From Escherichia coli (GTDB lineage Bacteria > Pseudomonadota > Gammaproteobacteria > Enterobacterales > Enterobacteriaceae), in the NCBI RefSeq assembly GCF_009931435.1, contig NZ_CP043414.1: DNA of 64,000 bases; one strand, 5' to 3'. Position 1 is the stretch's first letter, and each line of letters opens with the position of its first letter. A program made the translations under genes and the position numbers. The notes under the pieces are model-generated. The model made no database searches. It was not told where the DNA came from and was given only the letters and a program-made list of their open reading frames with translations. Shown one piece after another: positions 13,083 through 62,706 of the stretch.

Positions 13083-13837
13083 GTTGTCACCCTGGACCTG
13101 GTCGTACATTTAAGAAATTAAATCATTTCAACTTAGTTGTTAACGCAACCTGTATTTTGTTAACGCCGCGTTACGATGGAAAGTATGTCTGCGGAAATAT
13201 TTTTAATAACTCACCCGCGCGTTGTATTTTTCTTTTTTTGTTCATACCAAAGTATTAAAACCCACGTAAATACGCTGTTATCTACGCAAAAAAAATATTT
13301 TGTTTTCTTTTAAATTTCGGTTTTCCGCAATCAAAAATCACCAGACAGTCATTCTTCTTGCCCGTCGCTGATTGCTGCGATATGTCTTGCGCACAAGCCG
13401 TGACAAACCTCGTCTTTTTGCAGTAAAAAATTGTCCACGGAGGTGTGGAGAAAAAACAAGAACGTTTTACATGACGAAAGGACTACACCGAAATATTTTT
13501 TATATGCATTATTAGCAAGTTAGCACCATTTGTATGATTTTTTAAAATTGTGCAAGAAAAACCAAATGTACAACTTTTCTATCATTTCTAAACTTAATAA
13601 AACCTTAAGATTAACATTTTAATATAACAAGTTACATTTAGTTACATGTTTAACACTTGATTTAAGATTTGTAATGGCTAGATTGAAATCAGATGTAATC
13701 CATTAGTTTTATATTTTACCCATTTAGGGCTGATTTATTACTACACACAGCAGTGCAACATCTGTCAGTACTTCTGGTGCTTCTATTTTAGAGGCAGCTG
13801 TCAGGTGTGCGATCAATAAAAAAAGCGGGGTTTCATC
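13083..13837. promoter_or_regulatory. csgBAC / csgDEFG divergent intergenic control region (about 755 bp, AT-rich)
   Basis: Unusually long AT-rich non-coding region between divergent csgB and csgD starts; known from the literature to carry the csgD and csgB promoters and a long csgD 5' UTR. Individual sites not mapped here. Confidence 0.7.
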
Positions 13838-19381: not shown

Positions 19382-19469
19382 GGTGAGGTGTCCGAGTGGC
19401 TGAAGGAGCACGCCTGGAAAGTGTGTATACGGCAACGTATCGGGGGTTCGAATCCCCCCCTCACCGCCA
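19382..19469 (+). tRNA. serX: tRNA-Ser (anticodon GGA), serX-type
   Basis: 88-nt sequence GGTGAGGTGTCCGAGTGGCTGAAGG...CCTGGAAA...GGTTCGAATCCCCCCCTCACCGCCA with long variable arm and encoded CCA. Confidence 0.95.
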
Positions 19470-19935
19470 TCTTTAAAGAAGAGCTCGTACGAAAGTACGG
19501 GCTTTTTTTTCGTATATTGCACACACCGGGGGGATGAGAAGCCCCGACAGGGGTTCGACAACTGGCGACAGCCAGTTGGACAGACCGTGAACGCAGTGAG
19601 CGGGCTGCCCGCAGGGCGAGCGAAGCGAGTCAATCCCCCCCTCACCGCCATCTTTAAAGAAGAGCTCGTACGAAAGTACGGGCTTTTTTTTTGTATATTG
19701 CACACACCGGGGGGATGAGAAGCCCCGACAGGGGTTCGACAACTGGCGACAGCCAGTTGGACAGACCGTGAACGCAGTGAGCGGGCTGCCCGCAGGGCGA
19801 GCGAAGCGAGTCAATCCCCCCCTCACCGCCATCTTTAAAGAAGAGCTCGTACGAAGGTACGGGCTTTTTTTTCGTATATTGCACACACCGGGGGATGAAA
19901 AGCCCCGACCGGGGTTCGACAACTGGCGACAAACT
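19461..19935. repeat. About 2.6 tandem copies of a ~181-bp unit, each carrying the serX 3'-terminal ~20 nt plus the terminator hairpin
   Basis: The string tcaccgccatctttaaagaagagctcgtacgaaagtacgggc recurs at about 19461, 19642 and 19823; copies 1 and 2 are near-identical, copy 3 is truncated and diverged; each unit also has an 8-bp palindrome caactggc-gaca-gccagttg. Confidence 0.85.
19482..19510 (+). terminator. Rho-independent terminator of serX (gctcgtac-gaaa-gtacgggc + T8)
   Basis: Hairpin followed by 8 T residues immediately 3' of the tRNA; repeated in each downstream repeat unit. Confidence 0.75.
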
Positions 19936-26342: not shown

Positions 26343-27660
26343 TCGCATCGTATCGTTTTTTATATTATGTCTGGTGTTATGCATACCCCTATGCGTAGCG
26401 TACTTTCACTCTGGTGAACTGATGATGAGGTTCGTTTTCTTCTGGCCGTTTTTTATGTCCATTATGTGGATTGTTGGCGGCGTCTATTTCTGGGTATATC
26501 GTGAACGCCACTGGCCGTGGGGAGAAAACGCACCAGCTCCCCAGTTGAAAGATAATCCGTCTATCTCCATTATCATTCCCTGTTTTAATGAGGAGAAAAA
26601 CGTTGAGGAAACCATACACGCCGCTTTAGCACAGCGTTATGAGAACATTGAAGTTATTGCCGTAAATGACGGTTCAACAGACAAAACCCGTGCCATCCTG
26701 GATCGCATGGCTGCACAAATTCCCCACCTGCGGGTCATTCATCTGGCGCAAAACCAGGGGAAAGCCATTGCGCTTAAAACCGGAGCTGCCGCGGCGAAAA
26801 GTGAATATCTGGTGTGCATTGATGGCGATGCGTTATTAGACCGCGATGCGGCGGCATATATTGTGGAACCGATGTTGTACAACCCGCGTGTGGGTGCCGT
26901 AACCGGTAATCCTCGTATTCGAACACGTTCTACCCTGGTGGGTAAAATTCAGGTTGGCGAGTATTCCTCAATTATTGGTTTGATCAAGCGAACCCAGCGT
27001 ATCTATGGAAACGTATTTACCGTTTCTGGTGTTATTGCCGCATTTCGTCGCAGCGCCCTGGCAGAAGTGGGTTACTGGAGTGACGATATGATCACCGAAG
27101 ATATTGATATTAGCTGGAAGCTGCAGTTGAATCAGTGGACGATTTTTTACGAGCCACGGGCGCTGTGCTGGATATTAATGCCTGAAACGTTAAAAGGGCT
27201 GTGGAAACAGCGCCTGCGCTGGGCTCAGGGCGGTGCAGAAGTATTCCTCAAAAATATGACAAGGCTATGGCGCAAAGAAAACTTTCGAATGTGGCCACTG
27301 TTTTTTGAATACTGTCTGACGACAATATGGGCCTTTACCTGCCTGGTCGGTTTCATTATTTACGCAGTCCAACTTGCAGGTGTACCGTTAAATATTGAAT
27401 TGACACATATCGCTGCGACACATACTGCCGGAATATTATTGTGTACGTTATGTTTACTGCAATTTATTGTCAGCCTGATGATCGAGAATCGCTATGAGCA
27501 TAATCTGACTTCATCGCTTTTCTGGATTATTTGGTTCCCGGTTATTTTCTGGATGCTGAGCCTGGCAACGACATTGGTATCATTTACACGAGTCATGTTG
27601 ATGCCTAAAAAGCAACGCGCCCGTTGGGTAAGTCCCGATCGAGGGATTCTGAGAGGTTAA
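26335..27660 (+). CDS. pgaC: PGA synthase glycosyltransferase (GT2) PgaC
   Basis: 441-aa ORF with GT2 motifs (DGD, QRLRW); 8-nt overlap with pgaB. Confidence 0.95.
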
Positions 27661-28124: not shown

Positions 28125-29189
28125 TTAACTGTATGCATGTAGCGTACGTTGGCAAAGTGCCGAACGTACGCAATCCTCTTTACCGAATCGGACGATCCCG
28201 ACCATTTCATCTTCTTCGAAACGTTCCAGCGCGTCACTTAATCCGGAGCGCACGCCGCGAGGCAAATCGCATTGCGTGATATCACCGTTGACGATAACCG
28301 TCACGTTCTCCCCGAGGCGGGTTAAAAACATTTTCATTTGCGCGGCAGTCACATTCTGCGCCTCGTCAAGAATGACGACTGCATTTTCAAAGGTACGTCC
28401 ACGCATATAGGCGAACGGCGCGATTTCCACCTTCCCTATTTCCGGTCGCAGGCAGTACTGCATAAAGGAAGCCCCTAAGCGCCGGACCAGCACGTCGTAG
28501 ACCGGACGAAAATAGGGAGCAAACTTTTCTGCGATATCTCCAGGTAAGAAGCCAAGATCTTCATCGGCTTGCAGAACTGGACGGGTGACGATAATCCTGT
28601 CGACATCCTTATGTATCAGGGCCTCTGCCGCTTTTGCTGCGCTGATCCAGGTTTTTCCGCACCCGGCTTCGCCGGTGGCGAATATCAGCTGCTTACTCTC
28701 AATAGCCTTCAGATAGTGCAATTGCGCTTCATTTCGCGCGAGGATGGGCGAGGTATCGCGACTGTCGCGGGCCATACCAATGGCTTCTACGCCGCTCATC
28801 TGCACAAGCGAGGTGACCGATTCTTCTTCACGCTGCTTATGGCTGCGCGAATCCCGTCTCAGCACACGTTTTGCCTCGCGACGAGCTTTGATCACTGCTT
28901 TTTGTCTTCCCATGGAGAGCACCTTGAGTTGTTTGTATTCATCACACGCGCCGTTGGCAGCGCGATTATGCGCACGAACATCAGAGGGTTGGCTTCCTTG
29001 TAAGCCATAGTTTGCTTTTGGATAAAATGCCGAAAAACGGCTACGCGCACCGTTTACGGCGTCGGTAACACATGAAAAGAAAGGTTGAGGTTGAAAATGC
29101 AAAGTGACGAGATGACTACCGGAGGAGAAATCTCCGCGAGTGGTGGAGCGTTGCTTAACAAAACATTGTCCAGTACAGGACGTTACCAT
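28125..29189 (-). CDS. phoH: Phosphate-starvation-inducible ATPase PhoH (PsiH)
   Basis: 354-aa ORF with Walker A (GEAGCGKT); recognised as PhoH. Confidence 0.95.
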   Translation of the reverse strand: MVTSCTGQCFVKQRSTTRGDFSSGSHLVTLHFQPQPFFSCVTDAVNGARSRFSAFYPKANYGLQGSQPSDVRAHNRAANGACDEYKQLKVLSMGRQKAVIKARREAKRVLRRDSRSHKQREEESVTSLVQMSGVEAIGMARDSRDTSPILARNEAQLHYLKAIESKQLIFATGEAGCGKTWISAAKAAEALIHKDVDRIIVTRPVLQADEDLGFLPGDIAEKFAPYFRPVYDVLVRRLGASFMQYCLRPEIGKVEIAPFAYMRGRTFENAVVILDEAQNVTAAQMKMFLTRLGENVTVIVNGDITQCDLPRGVRSGLSDALERFEEDEMVGIVRFGKEDCVRSALCQRTLHAYS

Positions 29190-29338: not shown

Positions 29339-29356
29339 ATGACAGAGTGATGACAG
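29339..29356 (-). promoter_or_regulatory. Pho box (PhoB binding site) upstream of phoH
   Basis: Minus-strand sequence CTGTCATCACTCTGTCAT: two CTGTCAT direct repeats separated by 4 nt (11-nt periodicity), matching the Pho box consensus, about 150 bp upstream of phoH. Confidence 0.6.
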
Positions 29357-32021: not shown

Positions 32022-32852
32022 TTACGCGGAGCGAGACGCTGTCGCCCCTGCGCGCGGCGGCAGAGTAAATGCCACCAGCGCCGGGATGAGATAAATAAAC
32101 CAGACGGCGACTTCGCTGACGCTCGGCGCTTCCTGATAACCAAAGATACCTTCCATCAGCGTACCGAACAGCGAGTGAGTTGAGAGCACCGCGCTCATAT
32201 CGAAGGCGATTTCCTGAAAGTGGTTCCACAGCCCGGCTTCATGAAACGCGCGAATAGCACCAGCAGCCAGCCCTGCGGCGACGAAGAGAATAAACAGGCT
32301 GGTCCATTTAAAAAACGCGCCAAGATTGAGGCGAATACCGCCCCAGTAGAGCAGGAAGCCGAGCACCACGGCTGTAGCAAGACCGAGCATTGCACCCAGC
32401 GGAGGCCAGATCCCGACATCTTGTTGAAACGCCGCCAGCAGGAAAAAGACCGACTCCAGTCCTTCCCTTGCAACGGCAAAAAAGACCATCATCACCAGCG
32501 CCCAGCCATGATGATTCCCACGCTGCAATGCGCTATCGACTGCCTGTTCCAGTTGCACTTTGACGTTGCGCGACACTTTACGCATCCAGAAAACCATCCA
32601 GGTGAGGATCACCACGGCAATCACCGCCACGATACCTTCGAACAATTCCTGCTCTTTTTGCGGAAATTCGCCGGTGGTTTCATTAATGAAGATACCCAGC
32701 CCCAGGCACAACGCAGCGGCTAGCAACACGCCAATCCACATGACACCAATCCATCGACCTCGCTGGGTACGCTTAAGATAGCTGGCAATCAGGCTGACAA
32801 TCAGCGCGGCTTCAAGTCCTTCGCGCAACATAATGAGAAACGGAACAAACAT
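32022..32852 (-). CDS. efeU: Ferrous iron permease EfeU (FTR1 family), apparently intact
   Basis: ORF 32022..32861; start at MFVPFLIMLREGLEA gives 276 aa with both REGLE motifs (REGLEA, REGLES) and no frameshift. Confidence 0.93.
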   Translation of the reverse strand: MFVPFLIMLREGLEAALIVSLIASYLKRTQRGRWIGVMWIGVLLAAALCLGLGIFINETTGEFPQKEQELFEGIVAVIAVVILTWMVFWMRKVSRNVKVQLEQAVDSALQRGNHHGWALVMMVFFAVAREGLESVFFLLAAFQQDVGIWPPLGAMLGLATAVVLGFLLYWGGIRLNLGAFFKWTSLFILFVAAGLAAGAIRAFHEAGLWNHFQEIAFDMSAVLSTHSLFGTLMEGIFGYQEAPSVSEVAVWFIYLIPALVAFTLPPRAGATASRSA

Positions 32853-32908
32853 GCCACCCACCCTTAAACGTTTTTCTGAGTCAATCTATGCAAAGAAAAG
32901 TAAATCGC

Positions 32909-52083: not shown

Positions 52084-54626
52084 GATTTCACCTGCGACGC
52101 GGGAACATATTCGCACTGCGCCACCATCTCAACGGGGCCGTTAAACGCCGTCACTTGTTCCACTGTTCCGTTGTACTTCTCAATTTCCACCAGCGTGGTA
52201 TGTGCACTGGTCGCCTGCGCCAGCTGCGAAGTACCGATGTCGATGGTCAACACGTTGGGGTTACCGTATTTACACAGTGCACCAGGCTCGCCGCCTTTAT
52301 CTGGATCGTACCATGCCCCTTCGTGAATTCGTGCCACGCCGGGTGCATAGCGGTCAGAAACCACTGCTCCAGCCAAGACCTGACCACGAGCGTTAAAGAC
52401 GCGTACCACATCACCGTTACGAATACCGCGCGCACTGGCATCCTGCGGGCTAATAAATACTGGCTCTTTACCCGCGACCGTATATTGCTGACGCAGCGTT
52501 TCTGACTCACATAACTGCGAGTGAAGTCGGAAATCCGGATGCACAGATTGCAGATGCAACGGATACTTCTGCGAGCCGGGCCCGCCGTGGGAGCGTTCGA
52601 TTTTCTCAAACCACATCGGATGCCCCTGACAATCGTCGTAGTTCATATCAGCGATGGTTTTCGAGTAGATCTCAATCAGGCCACTCGGCGTGCCCAGCGG
52701 TTCGAGATCCGGATCTTCGCGGAATGCCTGGTGGCGAACAAACATCTGCGGATGGTCAAACTCGACGTACTCTTTCTTATTCCAGAAGTCATCAAACGCT
52801 GGCAGATGAACGCCGCGTCCTTTGCCCTGTTGTACACCTTCCTGCCAGATGCGTTTCAGCCAGCCCATTTCGTCCAGCCCTTCGGTAAAGGCTTCTTCAC
52901 GATTAAAGCGACGGCACAGCTCGCGGAAAATATCAAAGTCGTTGCGCGCCTCAAACTGCGGCGGCACCACCTGTTTCATGGCGATGATCCCACGGTTAGA
53001 GTGGTTACCGTACTGGTCGAGATCGTTACGCTCAAACTGCGTGGTCGCAGGCAGTACGATATCGGCAAAGCGGCAGGTTGAGGTCCACTGATTATCTATA
53101 GCGATAACCGTTTCCAGCTTGCGCCAGCCTTCGATAATGCGGTTAATCTGCTGATGACGATGTAACGGGTTAGTTCCGGCAAAAATACACATTTTCAGCG
53201 GTGGCAGTTTTACCGATTTACCATTCCAGTTGATCACTTTTCCCGGTTCGAGGATCGCATCGACAAAACGGGCAATCGGAATAGTGCTGCTATAGCCTTG
53301 GTAGTCGCTGTTGTCGTGAACAGGTGGAATCGACGTAGAGCCGGAGAAACCACTCAGAATAACGCCTTTACGCCCCGGCGTGCCTGCGCCGTTATAGTGC
53401 CAGCCAAAACCGAAGCCACCACCCGGCAGGCCAATTTGCCCCAGCATCGCCGCCAGAACCACAATCATCCACGCCCACTGTTCACCGTGCTGCATACGCT
53501 GTACGCACCAACCAGCAATAATCTGCGTTCTGTTCGCCGCTATCTGCCGCGCCAGTCCACGAATGGTTTCGGCATCAATGCCAGTCAGTTTTTCAGCCCA
53601 TGCGGCATCTTTCGGCTGACCGTCTTTCTCGCCCAGCAGATAGGGCAGAAACTGCTCAAAGCCCACGCAGTAGTTAGCGAGGAAGTTTTTGTCGTACAGG
53701 TTTTCGCTGTACAACGTATGCGCCAGCGCCAGTTGCAGCGGCACGTCAGTTTGCGGGTTAACCGCAATGTGCTTCACATGCTCGCGTCCCAGATACTCAT
53801 GAGTGGATGTAACAACCGGATCGATGCTGATGACCTGAATTTCACCGGCGGCGACTTTCGCTTTCAACTGCGCGTAATATTCATAAACATCGTGATCCGG
53901 GCACCACCAGTTCGCTTGCTGGTTTTTCAGCAAATCGGAGCCCCACAGCACAATGGTTTTGCTGTTCTGCAATACCAGCGGCCAGGAGGTTTGCTGTTCA
54001 TACACTTCCATAGAGCCAACTACACGCGGCAGGATCACCTGCGCAGCACCGGTCGAGTAATCCCCACCCGTACCAACGCTATTACCATGTAAGGCAATCG
54101 CTTTCGCCAACATCCCCGACGCGTTATGGAACATCCCCGTCGACTGCCAACCACTGGCGGTCAGTAAGGCACTCGGCCCGTGCGTTTTCTGCACACGTTC
54201 CAGCTCTTCATAGAACATGTCGAGGGCTTCATCCCAGCTCACGCGCACAAAACGGTTATCACCGCGCTGGGAGGTGTCGCTGAGATGGCGCTTACGTAGC
54301 CAGTCCACGCGTACCATCGGATAACGAATACGCGCCGCGTTGTGTACGTGGTCCGGCAATCCGGCGATCATTTTCGACGGATATTTATCCAGTTCGAACG
54401 GTTTTGCCGCCACAAAGCGACCATTCTTCACCGTCGCGCGGATAGCCCCCCAGTGCGACCCGGTCAGAATGCCCTCTTTCGAGGTGACAGCCTCAGTCGC
54501 CGCTTGCGCCGCAGTCGCACGGCGCGGCGTTAACAGTGACGGCCCCAGCATCCCGGCGACAGTTAAGCCGCCGAGTTGTGCCAGAAAACGTCGACGTGAT
54601 GCCTGAAAGAGATCGTTATTGTTCAT
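52080..54626 (-). CDS. torA: Trimethylamine-N-oxide reductase TorA (molybdoenzyme, Tat-exported)
   Basis: 848-aa ORF with twin-arginine signal ([18 protein letters not shown]); 4-nt overlap with torD. Confidence 0.97.
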
Positions 54627-55798
54627 TATTTTTCTTCCTTCTTATCGCCGTGAGCCTTACCTGCGGTATCAGACGCATTCATTTGCAGATATTTCAGCAA
54701 GGTGCGTTCTTCACGTTTATCGAGGCTGGTAAAGCCAATCATGCCGTTGAGCGTGCCAATCCAACCATTAGCGTCGAAGTGGGCGATTTCCGGTGCGCCG
54801 TGGCATTGATTACAGGTGCCGTTGTACAGCGAATCCGCATAAGCCCAGATCGGTTTGATATCGTTCACCATGTCGCCTTTCTTCATCCACGCGGTGGCCT
54901 GCAATTTGCTCCACTCGGTATTGGTGTCGGCAACGGTGGTTTTCTCCAGCGTTTTCACCTGCTGCTGAACATCGCCACGAATCGAAGCAACAAAGATGCG
55001 TTTGCCAGGGAACTGGGTGAGTACACGCTGACGTCCTGCGCTTTCCGTCCAGCCAGTGATTTCAATTTGCAGCCAGTCGCCGTCACGTTTAAGGACTTTC
55101 ACTTCCGAAGCAGGCAGCAGAGAACCAGACGCTTCTTTATCGCCTTTCGCCGCATAAATTGGCTTAATATCAATGGAGTACAGCGTGTCACCACTATCAT
55201 TAGCACTGGCACGCAGCTCATCGAACTGCTTACGGAAGCCACTACTCATATCAGGTAACTGGTGGGCAATACCTTTATGACAGTCGATGCAGGATTGATT
55301 ATCTTTCGCTGCCACCTTCATCTGACGCGCCGCTTCAGGATGCTGCTTCGCATGATCCATCGCGTCGTAGTTATGGCAGGAGCGGCAGGTTGCCGAGTTG
55401 TTTTCTTTCATTCGCGCCCATTCACGCTCGGCAAGTTCCGCGCGTTTGGCTTCGAATTTCTCAGGTGTATCAATGGAGTGGGCAATAAAGGTCTGGTAGA
55501 TGTCGTTGCTCGCTTCCAGTTTACGCTTCACCATGCCTGGAATATCCGGCGGGATATGGCAGTCATGGCATTCAGCTCGCACGCCGGAGGCGTTCTGGAA
55601 ATGCACCGACTGTTTATATTCTTCATACACCGGTTGCATACTGTGGCAACTGACACAAAATTCGGTTGTGCTGGTGACTTTGATCCCCACGTGAGGTAAC
55701 ACAATCAGCGCAATGCCAATCACAATCCCAATAGCGACCAGCGCCAGTACCGACCAACGAGCACTGGGTCGGCGTAACGCGTTCCAGAGTTTCCGCAT
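54626..55798 (-). CDS. torC: Pentahaem c-type cytochrome TorC (NapC/NirT family)
   Basis: ORF 54626..55846; start at MRKLWNALRRPSARW gives 390 aa; five CxxCH haem motifs (CVSCH, CHDCH, CRSCH, CIDCH, CNQCH). Confidence 0.95.
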   Translation of the reverse strand: MRKLWNALRRPSARWSVLALVAIGIVIGIALIVLPHVGIKVTSTTEFCVSCHSMQPVYEEYKQSVHFQNASGVRAECHDCHIPPDIPGMVKRKLEASNDIYQTFIAHSIDTPEKFEAKRAELAEREWARMKENNSATCRSCHNYDAMDHAKQHPEAARQMKVAAKDNQSCIDCHKGIAHQLPDMSSGFRKQFDELRASANDSGDTLYSIDIKPIYAAKGDKEASGSLLPASEVKVLKRDGDWLQIEITGWTESAGRQRVLTQFPGKRIFVASIRGDVQQQVKTLEKTTVADTNTEWSKLQATAWMKKGDMVNDIKPIWAYADSLYNGTCNQCHGAPEIAHFDANGWIGTLNGMIGFTSLDKREERTLLKYLQMNASDTAGKAHGDKKEEK

Positions 55799-55846
55799 AA
55801 TAGCCCCTGTAAAATTATGGTTTAGTGAAGCGATCTTAATGAGCAA

Positions 55847-55909
55847 ATATGAACAGCGGCACTGGTCAGGATGAACGGCTTACGGCAGAATATGAACAGA
55901 TATGAACAG
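55847..55909 (-). promoter_or_regulatory. tor boxes (TorR binding decamers CTGTTCATAT) upstream of torCAD
   Basis: Plus-strand atatgaacag at about 55847, 55890 and 55900 plus degenerate ggatgaacgg at about 55869, giving four direct repeats between torC and divergent torR. Confidence 0.8.
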
Positions 55910-55927
55910 AATGAGTAAAACTCTCTG

Positions 55928-56620
55928 ATGCCACATCACATTGTTATTGTTGAAGATGAGCCGGTTACCCAGGCGCGATTACAAACCTACTTCACTCAGG
56001 AGGGGTATACGGTTTCCGTTACGGCGAGCGGTGCCGGGCTGCGTGAAATTATGCAAAACCAGCCAGTGGATTTAATTCTGCTGGATATCAATTTGCCCGA
56101 TGAAAATGGCCTGATGTTAACCCGCGCCCTGCGGGAACGTTCGACGGTGGGTATTATTCTGGTTACCGGACGCAGCGATCGGATTGACCGTATTGTTGGG
56201 CTGGAAATGGGCGCAGACGATTACGTCACCAAACCGCTGGAACTGCGCGAACTGGTGGTACGGGTGAAAAATCTGCTCTGGCGAATCGACCTCGCGCGAC
56301 AAGCTCAACCGCTCACTCAGGACAACTGCTATCGCTTTGCCGGTTATTGCCTGAATGTGTCGCGCCATACGCTGGAGCTTGATGGCGAACCGATTAAACT
56401 AACCCGCGCAGAGTATGAAATGTTGGTGGCATTTGTGACCAATCCGGGCGAAATTCTCAGCCGTGAACGTCTGCTGCGTATGCTTTCTGCGCGCCGGGTG
56501 GAAAACCCCGACCTGCGCACCGTCGATGTGTTAATTCGTCGTTTACGTCATAAACTCAGCGCGGATTTACTGGTAACACAACATGGCGAAGGTTATTTCT
56601 TAGCCGCTGATGTGTGCTGA
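55928..56620 (+). CDS. torR: Response regulator TorR (OmpR family)
   Basis: 230-aa ORF, ATG at 55928; receiver domain plus winged-helix output. Confidence 0.95.
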   Translation: MPHHIVIVEDEPVTQARLQTYFTQEGYTVSVTASGAGLREIMQNQPVDLILLDINLPDENGLMLTRALRERSTVGIILVTGRSDRIDRIVGLEMGADDYVTKPLELRELVVRVKNLLWRIDLARQAQPLTQDNCYRFAGYCLNVSRHTLELDGEPIKLTRAEYEMLVAFVTNPGEILSRERLLRMLSARRVENPDLRTVDVLIRRLRHKLSADLLVTQHGEGYFLAADVC

Positions 56621-57621
56621 TAAAAATAGACCGGACGAAATCCCCCTGGTGACAGCGAGCGGCGGATATGTTCGCGGTCGGCATTTTTCGGCGTCAGGAC
56701 TAAAATCGGTGGGCTGACATTATCAGACACCGATAGTCCCTGTAATTGCCTGATCGCTTGCTCAACCGCCAGTTCCCCCTGCCAGACCATTTGATCGCTG
56801 GCAGCCATGATCACTCTTCCCCGCTTTAGTCCGCGATACACCTGATGTGAAAGATAAAATGACACCACGGTCAGCGGCGTTTTCAGGTTACGCCCTTCAC
56901 CCATTGCCGCCTCTGCCGCAATCGCCGTTCCGGCCACAACGTCGATTTCTGGATGGCGCTCCAACATCTCCTGCAACAGGTTACGCTGGATTTCAATATC
57001 GTTGTCGCCGAGCGCAATATCGACAATACGCACCGGGCTTCCGGCAATGGCGGCGCGGAAACCCTCTACCATCTCCTTACTGCCCCCGGCGTTATCGGGG
57101 CCGGGCATCAACAGCACGTTCAGTGGTTTTCCGTGACTCCATTGCACCAGATATCGCCCTGGTTGATAGCCCATCTGAAACCACGGCACACCAACGCGGC
57201 TTTTCACCTGGGGAGCATCAATAGCATTTACCAGTTCGATCACCGGAAGACTTGCTACCTGCTTTTGCAGGTCGGGAAATGACGTCGTGCTACTTCCGAG
57301 CAAGATGGCCTCTGCACCCCACTGTTTGCACTGGTCGATTTGTGCTTGCTGGGTAGCCAACTGGCTGTAGCCGCCTGCCTCCAGCACTTTTAAATCCACA
57401 CCGTAGCGGCGAGCAGCCTCCTGCATACCATAGTTCAACGATAACCAGTATGAATCTTTCAGGCTGGGATAAAGCGCGCACAGTTTCCATGCGCGTTTGG
57501 CTTTAAGCGGCATAGAGGCTTGCACCGTGAAATGCTGCGCATCATGCCAGCGCAACAAGTTATCAGCCGAAAAACCAGGCCACATGAAAAGGGAAAGAAG
57601 TAACAATAGCAGTACGCGCAT
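56593..57621 (-). CDS. torT: Periplasmic TMAO-binding protein TorT
   Basis: 342-aa ORF with signal peptide ([19 protein letters not shown]); 3' end overlaps torR 3' end by 28 nt (convergent). Confidence 0.94.
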
Positions 57622-57703
57622 GATAGCCTCATCAATAATAAGGCTTTATGCTAGATGCATTCCGCTTTGCGACTCAACCTTTTTCACCTTAAGTACACTG
57701 ACC

Positions 57704-60448
57704 GTGAATTTAACCCTGACCCGAAGACTCTGGATGGGCTTTGCCCTGATGGCGCTGTTAACCCTGACCAGTACCCTGGTGGGATGGTACAACCTGCGCT
57801 TTATCAGCCAGGTGGAAAAAGACAATACTCAGGCATTGATTCCTACCATGAATATGGCGCGCCAGTTGAGCGAAGCCAGCGCCTGGGAACTTTTCGCCGC
57901 CCAGAACCTGACCAGTGCCGATAACGAAAAGATGTGGCAGGCGCAGGGGCGAATGCTCACCGCACAAAGCCTGAAGATTAACGCATTGCTGCAAGCGTTA
58001 CGGGAACAAGGGTTTGACACTACCGCTATTGAACAACAGGAGCAGGAGATCTCCCGTTCGTTACGTCAACAAGGGGAACTGGTGGGGCAGCGTTTGCAAC
58101 TGCGCCAGCAACAACAGCAACTCAGCCAGCAGATAGTCGCTGCTGCCGATGAGATCGCACGCCTGGCACAAGGTCAGGCGAATAATGCGGCAACCTCTGC
58201 CGGAGCGACCCAGGCCGGGATTTACGATTTGATCGAACAACATCAGCGTCAGGCCGCAGAAAACGCACTTGATCGGCTGATTGATATCGATCTTGAGTAC
58301 GTTAACCAGATGAATGAACTGCGCCTTAGCGCCCTGCGGGTGCAGCAAATGGTGATGAATCTGGGGCTGGAACAGATCCAGAAAAATGCGCCAACGCTGG
58401 AAAAGCAACTCAATAATGCGGTTAAAATTCTGCAACGTCGGCAAATACGCATTGAAGATCCCGGTGTTCGTGCACAGGTCGCGACAACGTTAACTACCGT
58501 TAGCCAATATAGCGATTTGCTGGCGCTGTATCAGCAGGACAGTGAAATCAGCAATCACCTGCAAACTCTCGCCCAAAATAACATCGCCCAGTTCGCGCAG
58601 TTTAGTAGCGAAGTCAGTCAACTGGTCGACACCATTGAGCTGCGTAATCAGCATGGCCTGGCGCATCTGGAAAAAGCCAGTGCACGCGGGCAATACAGCC
58701 TGTTATTGCTGGGGATAGTTTCTCTTTGCGCACTGATTCTGATCCTCTGGCGCGTGGTTTATCGCTCAGTCACGCGTCCCCTTGCCGAACAAACGCAGGC
58801 GCTGCAACGACTGCTGGACGGTGATATCAACTCCCCTTTCCCGGAAACCGCTGGCGTGCGGGAGCTGGACACCATCGGGCGGCTGATGGATGCGTTTCGC
58901 AGCAGTGTTCATGCACTGAATCGCCACCGCGAACAGCTGGCGGCGCAGGTCAAAGCGCGTACAGCTGAATTGCAGGAGCTGGTGATAGAACACCGACAGG
59001 CACGGGCGGAAGCAGAAAAAGCCAGCCAGGCAAAATCGGCGTTTCTGGCGGCGATGAGCCATGAGATCCGCACACCGCTGTACGGTATTCTCGGCACCGC
59101 GCAACTGCTGGCAGATAACCCCGCACTTAATGCCCAGCGTGATGATTTGCGGGCAATTACTGACTCTGGTGAATCGTTGCTGACCATCCTCAACGATATT
59201 CTCGATTATTCGGCTATCGAAGCAGGCGGCAAGAATGTTTCGGTCAGCGATGAGCCCTTTGAACCGCGCCCGCTGCTGGAAAGTACCCTGCAATTAATGA
59301 GCGGACGGGTGAAAGGTCGTCCGCTTCGCCTGGTAACTGAAATTGCCGACGATGTACCGACTGCGTTAATGGGCGATCCGCGGCGTATTCGTCAGGTTAT
59401 AACCAACCTGTTGAGCAACGCCCTGCGTTTCACCGACGAAGGGCACATTATCCTGCGTAGTCGCACTGATGGCGAACAATGGCTGGTCGAAGTGGAAGAC
59501 AGCGGCTGCGGTATTGATCCCTCGAAACTGGCTGAAATCTTCCAGCCATTTGTTCAGGTTAGCGGCAAACGCGGCGGCACCGGGCTGGGGCTGACTATCA
59601 GTAGCCGTCTGGCCCAGGCGATGGGCGGCGAACTCAGCGCCACCAGCACGCCGGAGGTTGGAAGCTGTTTTTGTTTACGCTTGCCGTTACGTATTGCCAC
59701 GGCACCCGTGCCAAAAACAGTCAATCAGGCGGTGCATCTGGACGGTTTACGTTTGCTGTTAATTGAAGATAACCCGCTAACCCAGCGAATTACCGTTGAG
59801 ATGCTGAACAACAGTGGTGCGCAGGTCGTTGCTGTTGGCAATGCCGCGCACGCGATAGAGACGTTGCAAAATAGCGAACCGTTTGCTGGGGCACTGGTGG
59901 ATTTTGATCTGCCGGATATCGACGGTATTACCCTTGCCCGACAACTGGTACAGCAATATCCGTCGCTGGTTTTGATTGGCTTTAGCGCCCATGTCATCGA
60001 CGAAACGTTGCGCCAGCGTACCAGTTCGCTATTTCACGGGATTATCCCTAAACCGGTGCCGCGTGAAGTACTCGGTCAGTTACTGGCGCACTATCTTCAA
60101 CTGCAAGTCAATAACGATCAACCGCTGGATGTATCGCAACTCAATGAAGATGCTCAGTTGATGGGGACGGAGAAGATCCACGAATGGCTGACATTATTTA
60201 AACAACATGCCCTGCCGCTTCTCGATGACATCGACATTGCCCGCGCCAGTCAGGATAGCGAGAAAATAAAGCGTGCTGCGCATCAGCTAAAAAGCAGTTG
60301 TTCGAGTCTGGGAATGCGTAGCGCCAGCCAGCTATGCGCACAACTGGAGCAGCAGCCATTATCTGCCCCCCTTCCACACGAAGAAATTACACGCAGTGTT
60401 GCCGCTCTGGAAGCATGGTTGAATAAGAAAGACCTGAACGCGATTTGA
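57704..60448 (+). CDS. torS: Hybrid sensor kinase TorS (HAMP, HisKA/HATPase, receiver, HPt)
   Basis: ORF 57497..60448; start placed at in-frame GTG 57704 ([20 protein letters not shown]...) giving 914 aa; phospho-acceptor motif [13 protein letters not shown] start is inferred. Confidence 0.9.
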
Positions 60449-60519
60449 ATCAATATCAGCCAGTTAAGAACAACTAGAATAGTGGCATTTGGTATGCAAC
60501 TTAACGGACTGGCAAAATC

Positions 60520-61593
60520 ATGGCAGAGAAAAGAAGAACCCGCTGGCAGCGGCGGCCAGGTACGACGGGCGGCAAATTACCGTGGAATGACTGGCGCAAT
60601 GCCACGACCTGGCGTAAAGCGACGCAATTATTACTGTTGGCAATTAATATTTATATTGCCATCACGTTCTGGTATTGGGTGCGCTATTACGAAACGGCAG
60701 GTAGTACGACATTTGTCGCCAGGCCAGGAGGCATCGAAGGCTGGCTACCGATTGCCGGTCTGATGAATCTGAAATATAGCCTTGCAACAGGCCAGTTACC
60801 GTCCGTCCACGCCGCCGCGATGCTGTTATTGGTCGCTTTTATCGTCATCAGTCTATTACTAAAAAAGGCCTTTTGTTCATGGTTATGCCCGATTGGTACG
60901 CTTTCTGAATTCATCGGCGATCTCGGTAACAAACTGTTTGGTCGGCAATTTGTCCTTCCCCGCTGTCTGGATATTCCTCTGCGCGGCGTGAAGTATTTGC
61001 TGTTGAGTTTTTTTCTCTATATCGCGTTATTGATGCCCGCTCAGGCTATTCACTATTTTATGTTGTCGCCCTACAGCGTGGTGATGGACGTTAAAATGCT
61101 CGATTTCTTTCGTCATATGGGGACCGCGACATTAATCAGCGTGACCGTTTTGCTGATTGTCAGTCTGTTTATTCGCCATGCCTGGTGTCGTTATCTTTGC
61201 CCATATGGCGCGCTGATGGGCGTGGTTTCGCTATTGTCGCCGTTTAAGATTCGTCGCAATGCCGAAAGTTGTATCGACTGTGGCAAATGCGCAAAAAATT
61301 GCCCATCGCGGATCCCGGTCGATAAATTAATTCAGGTACGAACCGTGGAATGTACCGGTTGTATGACTTGCGTAGAGTCATGTCCGGTAGCCTCAACATT
61401 GACCTTTTCACTGCAAAAACCTGCGGCAAATAAAAAAGCCTTTGCGTTGTCTGGCTGGTTAATGACGCTACTGGTTCTGGGGATTATGTTTGCGGTGATT
61501 GGTTACGCAATGTATGCGGGAGTATGGCAAAGCCCGGTGCCGGAGGAATTGTACCGACGCTTAATTCCGCAAGCGCCAATGATTGGTCACTAA
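60520..61593 (+). CDS. yccM: Membrane 4Fe-4S ferredoxin-type protein YccM (NapH/MauN-like)
   Basis: 357-aa ORF with TM segments and Cys clusters CxxCxxCxxxCP (CIDCGKCAKNCP, CTGCMTCVESCP). Confidence 0.9.
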   Translation: MAEKRRTRWQRRPGTTGGKLPWNDWRNATTWRKATQLLLLAINIYIAITFWYWVRYYETAGSTTFVARPGGIEGWLPIAGLMNLKYSLATGQLPSVHAAAMLLLVAFIVISLLLKKAFCSWLCPIGTLSEFIGDLGNKLFGRQFVLPRCLDIPLRGVKYLLLSFFLYIALLMPAQAIHYFMLSPYSVVMDVKMLDFFRHMGTATLISVTVLLIVSLFIRHAWCRYLCPYGALMGVVSLLSPFKIRRNAESCIDCGKCAKNCPSRIPVDKLIQVRTVECTGCMTCVESCPVASTLTFSLQKPAANKKAFALSGWLMTLLVLGIMFAVIGYAMYAGVWQSPVPEELYRRLIPQAPMIGH

Positions 61594-61641
61594 ATTAGCA
61601 ACAAGCGGAACATCACCTCGCACGGGGTGATGTTCACAAAA

Positions 61642-61815
61642 TCACATTATTTTGATTTTGACATCATAGCTTTCAAGCCCGGTCATTTTTTCTCGTGCGG
61701 TGAAGCGAATTTCAGAGACTTCTTTCCCTGTATTCTTGTTCAGCTCGGCGATTTTTTGCGCGATAAAGTCAGCGATTTCCGTTTCGGCTTGTTTTTTTAA
61801 CTCTTCAATATTCAC
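61642..61815 (-). CDS. gnsA: GnsA (suppressor of secG null), 57 aa, GTG start
   Basis: Hand-translated minus-strand ORF from GTG at 61813-61815: VNIEELKKQAETEIADFIAQKIAELNKNTGKEVSEIRFTAREKMTGLESYDVKIKIM; absent from ORF track (under 60 aa). Confidence 0.8.
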   Translation of the reverse strand: MNIEELKKQAETEIADFIAQKIAELNKNTGKEVSEIRFTAREKMTGLESYDVKIKIM

Positions 61816-62035
61816 TGTTAACCTCTTCTGGTCTTAAAAGACAGCAACACGCCAGTAAGGTGTTGGTTCCCGGTACCCTGGTCAGGTAAGAAATGTTATA
61901 AGCTATCTCCCCTAAAGATTCAATAATCAACAGGTTATCGCTTACTATACATACAGCGTTGAAGAAAAATAAGGCAGATATAAAAAAGGCTCCACGAGGG
62001 AGCCTGATCTTATTTTGTGAAATCCAGCGGCGCAT
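61805..62035 (-). CDS. ymcE: Small protein YmcE (Sfa), 76 aa
   Basis: ORF 61805..62068; start at internal ATG (MRRWISQNKIRLPRGAFFISALFFFNAVCIV...) gives 76 aa; 3' end overlaps the gnsA start by 11 nt. Confidence 0.55.
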   Translation of the reverse strand: MRRWISQNKIRLPRGAFFISALFFFNAVCIVSDNLLIIESLGEIAYNISYLTRVPGTNTLLACCCLLRPEEVNSEY

Positions 62036-62208
62036 GGTCAGTGCGTATTTGCAGCGCGACGTTATCAAAGGTGATCATCGTCGATTTACAAAAAATACAC
62101 TTTGCCCCTAAAGGATTTCGCTCCGTCACATCGAATGCCGATGTGCGGTACTGTGAACCATGACAACATGGACAGCGGAAATGGAGATGTTGAGTAATAA
62201 CGGCAACC

Positions 62209-62421
62209 TTAGAGCGTAACAACGTTCGCTGCCGCGGGACCACGTTGCCCCTGCTCAATAGAAAATTCAACTTTCTGATTTTCGTTCAGCGTGCGGAATT
62301 CATTGCTCTGGATGGCGGTGAAATGGACGAAAACGTCTTTGCTGCCATCATCAGGAGTGATAAAGCCAAAACCTTTATCTGCGTTAAACCATTTTACTAA
62401 ACCAGTCATTTTATTAGACAT
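62209..62421 (-). CDS. cspG: Cold-shock protein CspG (CspA family)
   Basis: 70-aa [24 protein letters not shown] with RNP1/RNP2 motifs. Confidence 0.95.
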
Positions 62422-62706
62422 ATTTTACTTCCTTCATTTTGGGCCTTTCGGCAAACAGGGCTTTAATACAGAAACTACTTAGTGTTCAGGAGAGAGACTC
62501 AAAAGAAGGGGATAATGCCTGATAATGAGAACTACTTTAGTAAACTACTTTGTATGCTGTCTGTCTTTCAAACCGACGCAGCTATTAACGCATGATAATT
62601 GAGATTAAGCAATTTTTATTTTAGCCGTCCGGCGGTCTTAAATATCGCTGGCTTTATTTTATTAACCCCGTATAGTGCAGCGCAGTATTTTCAGTAAGGA
62701 ATTTGT

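Follow-up and report, generated by a model that had tools for sequence, protein, structure and literature searches.

Introduction

The closest described counterpart of the locus analyzed here is the tor operator of Escherichia coli K-12, in which decameric tor boxes bound by the response regulator TorR lie between the divergently transcribed torR gene and torCAD operon (Simon et al. 1994/1995; Ansaldi et al. 2000). The published sequence of boxes 1, 2 and 4 is 5′-CTGTTCATAT-3′, and that of box3, a low-affinity element matching at 7 of 10 positions, is 5′-CCGTTCATCC-3′ (PMC9239176). In gel shifts with TorR, boxes 1, 2 and 4 gave positive results and isolated box3 a negative one, and binding of TorR has also been demonstrated for Salmonella Cerro 87 (PMC9239176). 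Published work on K-12 and on Salmonella documents TorR binding to the boxes and, through them, TMAO induction of torCAD (PMC9239176, PMC10845959, PMC5294996). A passage of PMC5294996 that cites Ansaldi 2000 describes the high-affinity site as bound by TorR in both its unphosphorylated and its phosphorylated state. Another informative comparison is with the pho boxes of PhoB. In both systems a winged-helix response regulator binds head-to-tail along direct repeats, the proximal one of which abuts the −35 element or takes its place, and the half-sites are similar (CTGTCAT versus CTGTTCAT). The geometry differs: the period of pho boxes is 11 bp, with a 7+4 structure, whereas the tor operator consists of four units split between high and low affinity.

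The window, by which we mean the whole 64,000-nucleotide stretch of E. coli DNA that was analyzed, contains at 55847–55909 a sequence that is almost certainly the canonical TorR operator, with its four tor boxes, of the divergent torR/torCAD control region. In comparison with the K-12 tor operator (Simon et al. 1994/1995; Ansaldi et al. 2000) it has the same decamers in the same order and orientation, the same spacing of 10/21/22 bp, the same distances to the torR and torC start codons and identical bases at all 63 positions, and it differs from the K-12 region solely in three flanking intergenic bases. The element is thus an already known, textbook and well-characterized one, and the window carries its canonical four-box allele.

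Results

The four boxes are direct repeats on the minus strand, which is the coding strand of torC, and all of them point toward that gene. They occupy part of a 129-bp intergenic region (55799–55927) bounded by the torC ATG (55798, minus strand) and the torR ATG (55928, plus strand); on the plus strand, window positions 55840–55910 read ...aaATATGAACAGcggcactggtcaGGATGAACGGcttacggcagaATATGAACAGATATGAACAGaatg. Box1 (55900–55909) and box2 (55890–55899) are contiguous exact copies of CTGTTCATAT, the same as in K-12, and box1 starts 19 nt from the torR ATG. Box4 (55847–55856), also an exact copy, is the promoter-proximal box and starts 58 nt from the torC ATG. Between them lies box3 (55869–55878, likewise on the minus strand), which reads CCGTTCATCC and is degenerate, with 7 of 10 positions equal to the consensus; in a script scan of the torC–torR intergenic region it shows three mismatches to CTGTTCATAT and retains the core GTTCAT. 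Box1 is predicted to form the distal half of the high-affinity site for TorR, and box3 is the predicted low-affinity box.

Followed in the direction of torC, the boxes start at 55909, 55899, 55878 and 55856, with steps of 10, 21 and 22 bp from one start to the next. The starts of boxes 3 and 4 are therefore 21 and 43 bp downstream of box2, and the two boxes sit about two and four helical turns downstream of the contiguous box1–box2 pair, on the same face of the helix. A scan of both strands of the 64 kb recovers exactly three exact copies of CTGTTCATAT, all on the minus strand, against a chance expectation of 0.07 per 64-kb window, and three or more copies appeared in 0 of 100 shuffles. The segment 55849–55907 is also the sole region of the window with four same-strand GTTCAT hexamers inside 63 bp. 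Box3 is not significant by itself, given that about 0.8 decamers with three or fewer mismatches are expected in 129 bp over two strands; its significance comes from its orientation, its exact core, its spacing and the retention of the GTTCA core across genera. When up to two mismatches are allowed, the whole window holds 60 matches to CTGTTCATAT compared with 51 expected, a background level, and the signal is therefore a local cluster of boxes and not a dispersed motif. Lone near-matches at 53994 and 55610 and a pair at 27660/27752 were not taken as sites.

A preliminary description of this DNA had placed three exact decamers and one degenerate decamer between torC and torR, and both their number and their strand are reproduced by the programmatic scan; the interval it gave, 55847–55909, reaches exactly from box4 to box1. 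It had also likened the arrangement to the known TorR operator architecture, and this likeness holds to the base: in an alignment with K-12 MG1655 every position from box1 through box4, spacers included, is identical, and the box sequences are those in PMC9239176. The same 63-bp stretch is found unchanged in 5100 of 5415 complete E. coli genomes. Across the full 129-bp intergenic region only three bases differ from K-12 (55922, 55812 and 55803), none of them in a box or an inter-box spacer. Position 55922, which is 6 nt before the torR ATG, is T in the window and C in K-12, whereas at 55803 and 55812, in the torC 5′UTR, E. albertii and E. whittamii have the same bases as the window, and it is K-12 that stands apart.

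The distal tandem of tor boxes is polymorphic within E. coli, with one, two or three units that yield three-, four- and five-box alleles. The three-box allele, with a single CTGTTCATAT unit and an intergenic region of 119 bp, has at least 14 carriers among the complete genomes, 12 of them exact and 2 with one mismatch. They include RMDEC465 (L027, 5799–5919), the complete genome nearest to the window across the 12-kb tor stretch (50000–62000), which has the one-unit allele as against the two units in the window; JNEC-KY204 (L026) is another of the loci compared with 55890–55909. The five-box allele, with three units and 139 bp, was counted in at least 65 genomes, O121 RM8352 (L028) and ECCHD184 (L029) among them; the figure counts exact junctions and is a lower bound. 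An estimate of about 360 five-box genomes from identity bands was set aside as unreliable, because four-box genomes that align in two pieces share the band. The variation in copy number looks like the outcome of replication slippage on the perfect 10-bp tandem.

Conservation beyond E. coli was examined by scanning the collection for the 20-nt box1–box2 tandem CTGTTCATATCTGTTCATAT, which gave 20 loci. Fifteen of these adjoin torC, and in 13 of the 15 the boxes are flanked by both torR and torC; for P. vermicola and G. celer, whose loci are short, the DNA covers the torC-side genes only. The 13 doubly flanked loci come from Escherichia (E. coli, E. albertii and E. whittamii), Salmonella enterica (arizonae and diarizonae), Edwardsiella (four species), Providencia (two species) and Grimontia marina. 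Spacing of 10/21/22 is constant in all 15 aligned sequences from five genera, as is the GTTCA core of box3, and the TTCATAT of box4 is likewise unchanged in 15 of 15 sequences; box1 is invariant in 14 of the 15, again across five genera. This constancy accompanies TorS proteins that, in the other genera, are only 60–70% identical to the TorS of the window.

Individual genera depart from the E. coli arrangement in detail. Salmonella, Edwardsiella and Providencia have the same four-box layout between torR and torC with an exact box1–box2 tandem, although box3 and the flanks of box4 vary in Edwardsiella, which has GCGTTCATGC, and in Providencia, which has GCTGTTCATC and in which box4 is CCATTCATAT. 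One extra upstream box is present in P. vermicola. Grimontia has the same four-box layout and spacing upstream of torC, also with an exact box1–box2 tandem, but is without the CTGACCAGTG spacer that is conserved elsewhere, and the distance between torR and box1 is about 220 bp in G. marina as compared with 19 in the window. The other five tandem loci of the collection (L006, L008, L012, L014 and L020) are on gut MAG contigs assigned to Bacteroidales, Lachnospiraceae, Clostridia and Synergistaceae, and one of them, L008, has 2.8 tandem units. A search for tor genes near the tandem in these five loci found none, and the tandem there is probably a chance occurrence or an unrelated repeat.

The boxes can be related to the torC promoter through a probable −10 element, TAAGAT (55833–55838, minus strand), which we placed from PMC10845959 and whose sequence is identical to that of K-12, the strain in which the promoter sites of torC and torR were mapped. 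In that study the −10 falls inside TTGCT(nnnn)AAGAT, and the 5′UTR would measure about 28 nt (PMC10845959). Transcription of torC would then begin near 55826 with a 5′UTR of this length, and relative to such a start box4 would span about −30 to −21, box3 −52 to −43, box2 −73 to −64 and box1 −83 to −74. The −10 region, ATAAGATC, is kept in all enterobacterial sequences aligned. On the opposite strand, a candidate torR promoter can be drawn at 55863–55891 (plus strand) from sequence considerations, with TGGTCA (55863–55868) and CAGAAT (55886–55891) separated by 17 nt. Its hexamers match at 8 of 12 positions, below the threshold of the scanner, and it would put the torR start inside box2/box1. 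Ansaldi 2000 is said to have found the torR start site covered by box1–box2, with which the candidate is consistent. The TGGTCA hexamer lies in the spacer between box3 and box4: CTGACCAGTG (55859–55868, minus strand), which is not a tor box, is invariant in all aligned Escherichia, Salmonella, Edwardsiella and Providencia sequences and is the complement of the candidate torR −35. A sigma-70 consensus scan of both strands over 55700–56000 returned no site above threshold, and the torC and torR promoters appear to be weak consensus matches, as would be expected for an activator-dependent promoter, so that this result speaks neither for nor against the model.

Two other features touch the torR–torC interval. 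Directly upstream of box1, at 55911–55917 on the minus strand, stands a TACTCAT that fits the NarL consensus TACYYMT; chance alone would give about 0.13 such heptamers in the intergenic region, so the match is weak evidence. Repression of torCAD by NarL has been reported (PMC10845959). The same study proposed a bis-MGD-responsive element or riboswitch in the torC 5′UTR (PMC10845959). In the window an Rfam scan gave no match in the torC 5′UTR and the folded segment from +1 to +57 has unremarkable stability (z = −0.54), so a structured RNA of this kind is unsupported by either approach, although one may be present.

Genes flanking the operator were placed from the open reading frame listing and by tblastn with the K-12 proteins. 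The first gene of the regulated operon is torC (54626–55798, minus strand), whose product, a 390-aa pentaheme c-type cytochrome with five CxxCH motifs and the Pfam domain Cytochrom_NNT, is 100% identical to that of K-12. It is followed by torA (52080–54626, minus strand), which encodes the 848-aa TMAO reductase with an SRRRFL Tat signal (full length, 98.7% identity), and by torD (51484–52083, minus strand), which encodes the 199-aa TorA-specific chaperone (full length, 95.0% amino acid identity, 10 substitutions). Transcribed divergently from torC, torR (55928–56620, plus strand) specifies a 230-aa response regulator of the OmpR/PhoB type with D53 in place (98.3% identity; Pfam Response_reg and Trans_reg_C). 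The sensory components are encoded by torT (56593–57621, minus strand), for a periplasmic TMAO-binding protein of 342 aa (98.2% identity; Pfam Peripla_BP_1), and by torS (57704–60448, plus strand), for a full-length hybrid sensor kinase of 914 aa with a GTG start (96.6% identity, 31 substitutions). TorS has the Pfam domains TorS_sensor, HAMP, HisKA, HATPase_c, Response_reg and Hpt, and H453, D733 and H860 are present.

All six tor genes align without gaps to K-12 over their full length, and a comparison of torS, torT, torR, torC, torA and torD with K-12 revealed no internal stops or frameshifts; the Pfam architectures of TorR, TorS, TorT and TorC are complete. These results bear on the further statement in the preliminary description that the boxes confirm an intact circuit. 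That reasoning does not hold, because an operator is silent on the state of the genes that it controls, but the statement finds its footing in the genes themselves, which are six in number and full length, with phosphorelay residues, heme motifs and Tat signal kept. From the full-length genes, kept residues and complete domains it follows that the TorS/TorT/TorR–torCAD circuit is probably intact at the level of sequence. The factors for Moco synthesis, cytochrome c maturation and Tat export that the pathway also needs are encoded outside the window.

Discussion

The identity of the operator and the state of its genes suggest that regulation follows the established K-12 mechanism, and we infer binding, cooperativity, autoregulation and inducibility in this strain from that correspondence. 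Periplasmic TorT together with TMAO would activate the hybrid kinase TorS, and a four-step phosphorelay would then pass from H453 to D733 to H860 of TorS and on to D53 of TorR. The adjacent box1 and box2 would form a high-affinity site occupied by TorR regardless of its phosphorylation and, by overlying the torR transcription start, would allow TorR to repress its own gene. The details of torR autoregulation, as well as experiments on the spacing between box2 and box3, reportedly go back to Ansaldi et al. 2000. Phosphorylated TorR would then cooperatively occupy boxes 3 and 4, which are of low affinity and lie on the same helical face, and with box4 predicted to abut the torC −35 region, TorR positioned there would recruit RNA polymerase and turn on torCAD, whose products are the cytochrome TorC, the TMAO reductase TorA and the chaperone TorD. 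The window carries a standard TMAO-respiration module with an unaltered operator and full-length genes, from which TMAO-inducible anaerobic respiration would be expected, and the operator finding itself carries little weight beyond annotation.

Alternative explanations of the repeats have to be set against this reading. Box1 and box2 form a perfect tandem duplication, slippage appears to act at this locus, to judge from the one, two or three units found among E. coli genomes, and one could imagine that the decamers are chance or slippage-generated repeats with no regulatory role. Such an origin is exceedingly improbable in view of three exact copies within 63 bp where 0.07 are expected per 64 kb, of a layout and invariant cores shared by five genera whose TorS proteins have diverged to 60–70% identity, and of published TorR binding (PMC9239176, PMC10845959). 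A regulatory role could also belong to a different protein, either another member of the OmpR/PhoB family or a global regulator such as PhoB, ArcA or FNR, and there are resemblances in this direction: CTGTTCATAT is similar to the pho-box half-site CTGTCAT, ArcA-like motifs overlap the TorR sites, and a weak FNR-like TTGCT-N4-AAGAT is present (PMC10845959). The resemblance to pho boxes does not extend to the full element, however, because, with up to three mismatches allowed, the 18-bp consensus CTGTCATAWAWCTGTCAY goes unmatched in 55799–55927, while recovering the phoH-adjacent site at 29339, and because the period is 10 bp and not 11. Binding of ArcA and FNR was ruled out experimentally in K-12 (PMC10845959), and we give an assignment to any regulator other than TorR almost no credence.

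A different objection accepts the canonical operator and supposes that the circuit it serves is dead through amino acid changes (such as those in TorS, 31 in number, or in TorD, 10), leaving the boxes as a relic. TorS (96.6%) and TorD (95.0%) are indeed the most diverged of the six proteins relative to K-12, and no complete E. coli genome exceeds 98.9% identity across the 12 kb of the tor stretch. Divergence of this order is nevertheless ordinary among E. coli lineages, TorC is at 100% and TorR at 98.3% to K-12, and a sequence without stops or frameshifts, with complete phosphorelay residues and domain architecture, makes loss of function very unlikely. The reading that we retain is that of the canonical four-box TorR operator with full-length genes and a circuit that is probably intact.

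The natural alleles of other strains may offer more of interest than the operator of this window. The distal high-affinity site is said to be critical, from mutagenesis in K-12, both for autoregulation and for induction. It is conceivable, if rather doubtful, that the number of copies in the box1–box2 tandem could tune torR autorepression and torCAD inducibility; separately, and with the same reservation, CTGACCAGTG may be the torR −35 element, in which case TorR on boxes 3 and 4 would be tied to the transcription of torR. The three- and five-box alleles of other strains are perhaps worth a short population-genetic or reporter study.

The surroundings of the tor locus show several features in their own right. 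The window is collinear with K-12 in reverse orientation from 1,049,105 to beyond 1,114,000 at an identity of only 95.4–97.8%, and relative to K-12 it is without IS1D and without the IS3D/ymdE/ycdU segment. Over the 12-kb tor stretch, identity to complete E. coli genomes reaches at most 98.9%, and the 301-bp torC–torR segment is matched at 100% in 11 genomes among the matches listed; these values suggest that the window may represent an under-sampled lineage or a mosaic region. The efeU gene (32022–32861, minus strand), annotated as a pseudogene in K-12, is an uninterrupted 279-aa open reading frame here. A tandem repeat of 181 bp in 2.7 copies with 98% identity (19451–19931), an array also present in K-12, starts within the 3′ end of serX and adjoins the tRNA-Ser(GGA) at 19382–19469.

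There are three pho-box matches in the window, all outside 55799–55927. Two mismatches each to the consensus are found at 29339–29356 and 48338–48355, both on the minus strand, as compared with 0.15 such matches expected per window; by collinearity with K-12 one adjoins phoH, whose promoter belongs to the Pho regulon, and the other lies just upstream of agp, a gene that is not known to be under PhoB control. Rfam matches above the gathering score comprise the ES056 sRNA (13691–13782, plus strand), Ysr251 (28130–28323, plus strand), the ES036 (CssrF) sRNA (45468–45510, plus strand) and a cspA-type thermoregulator (62155–62577, minus strand) that corresponds, by K-12 collinearity, to the cspG leader.
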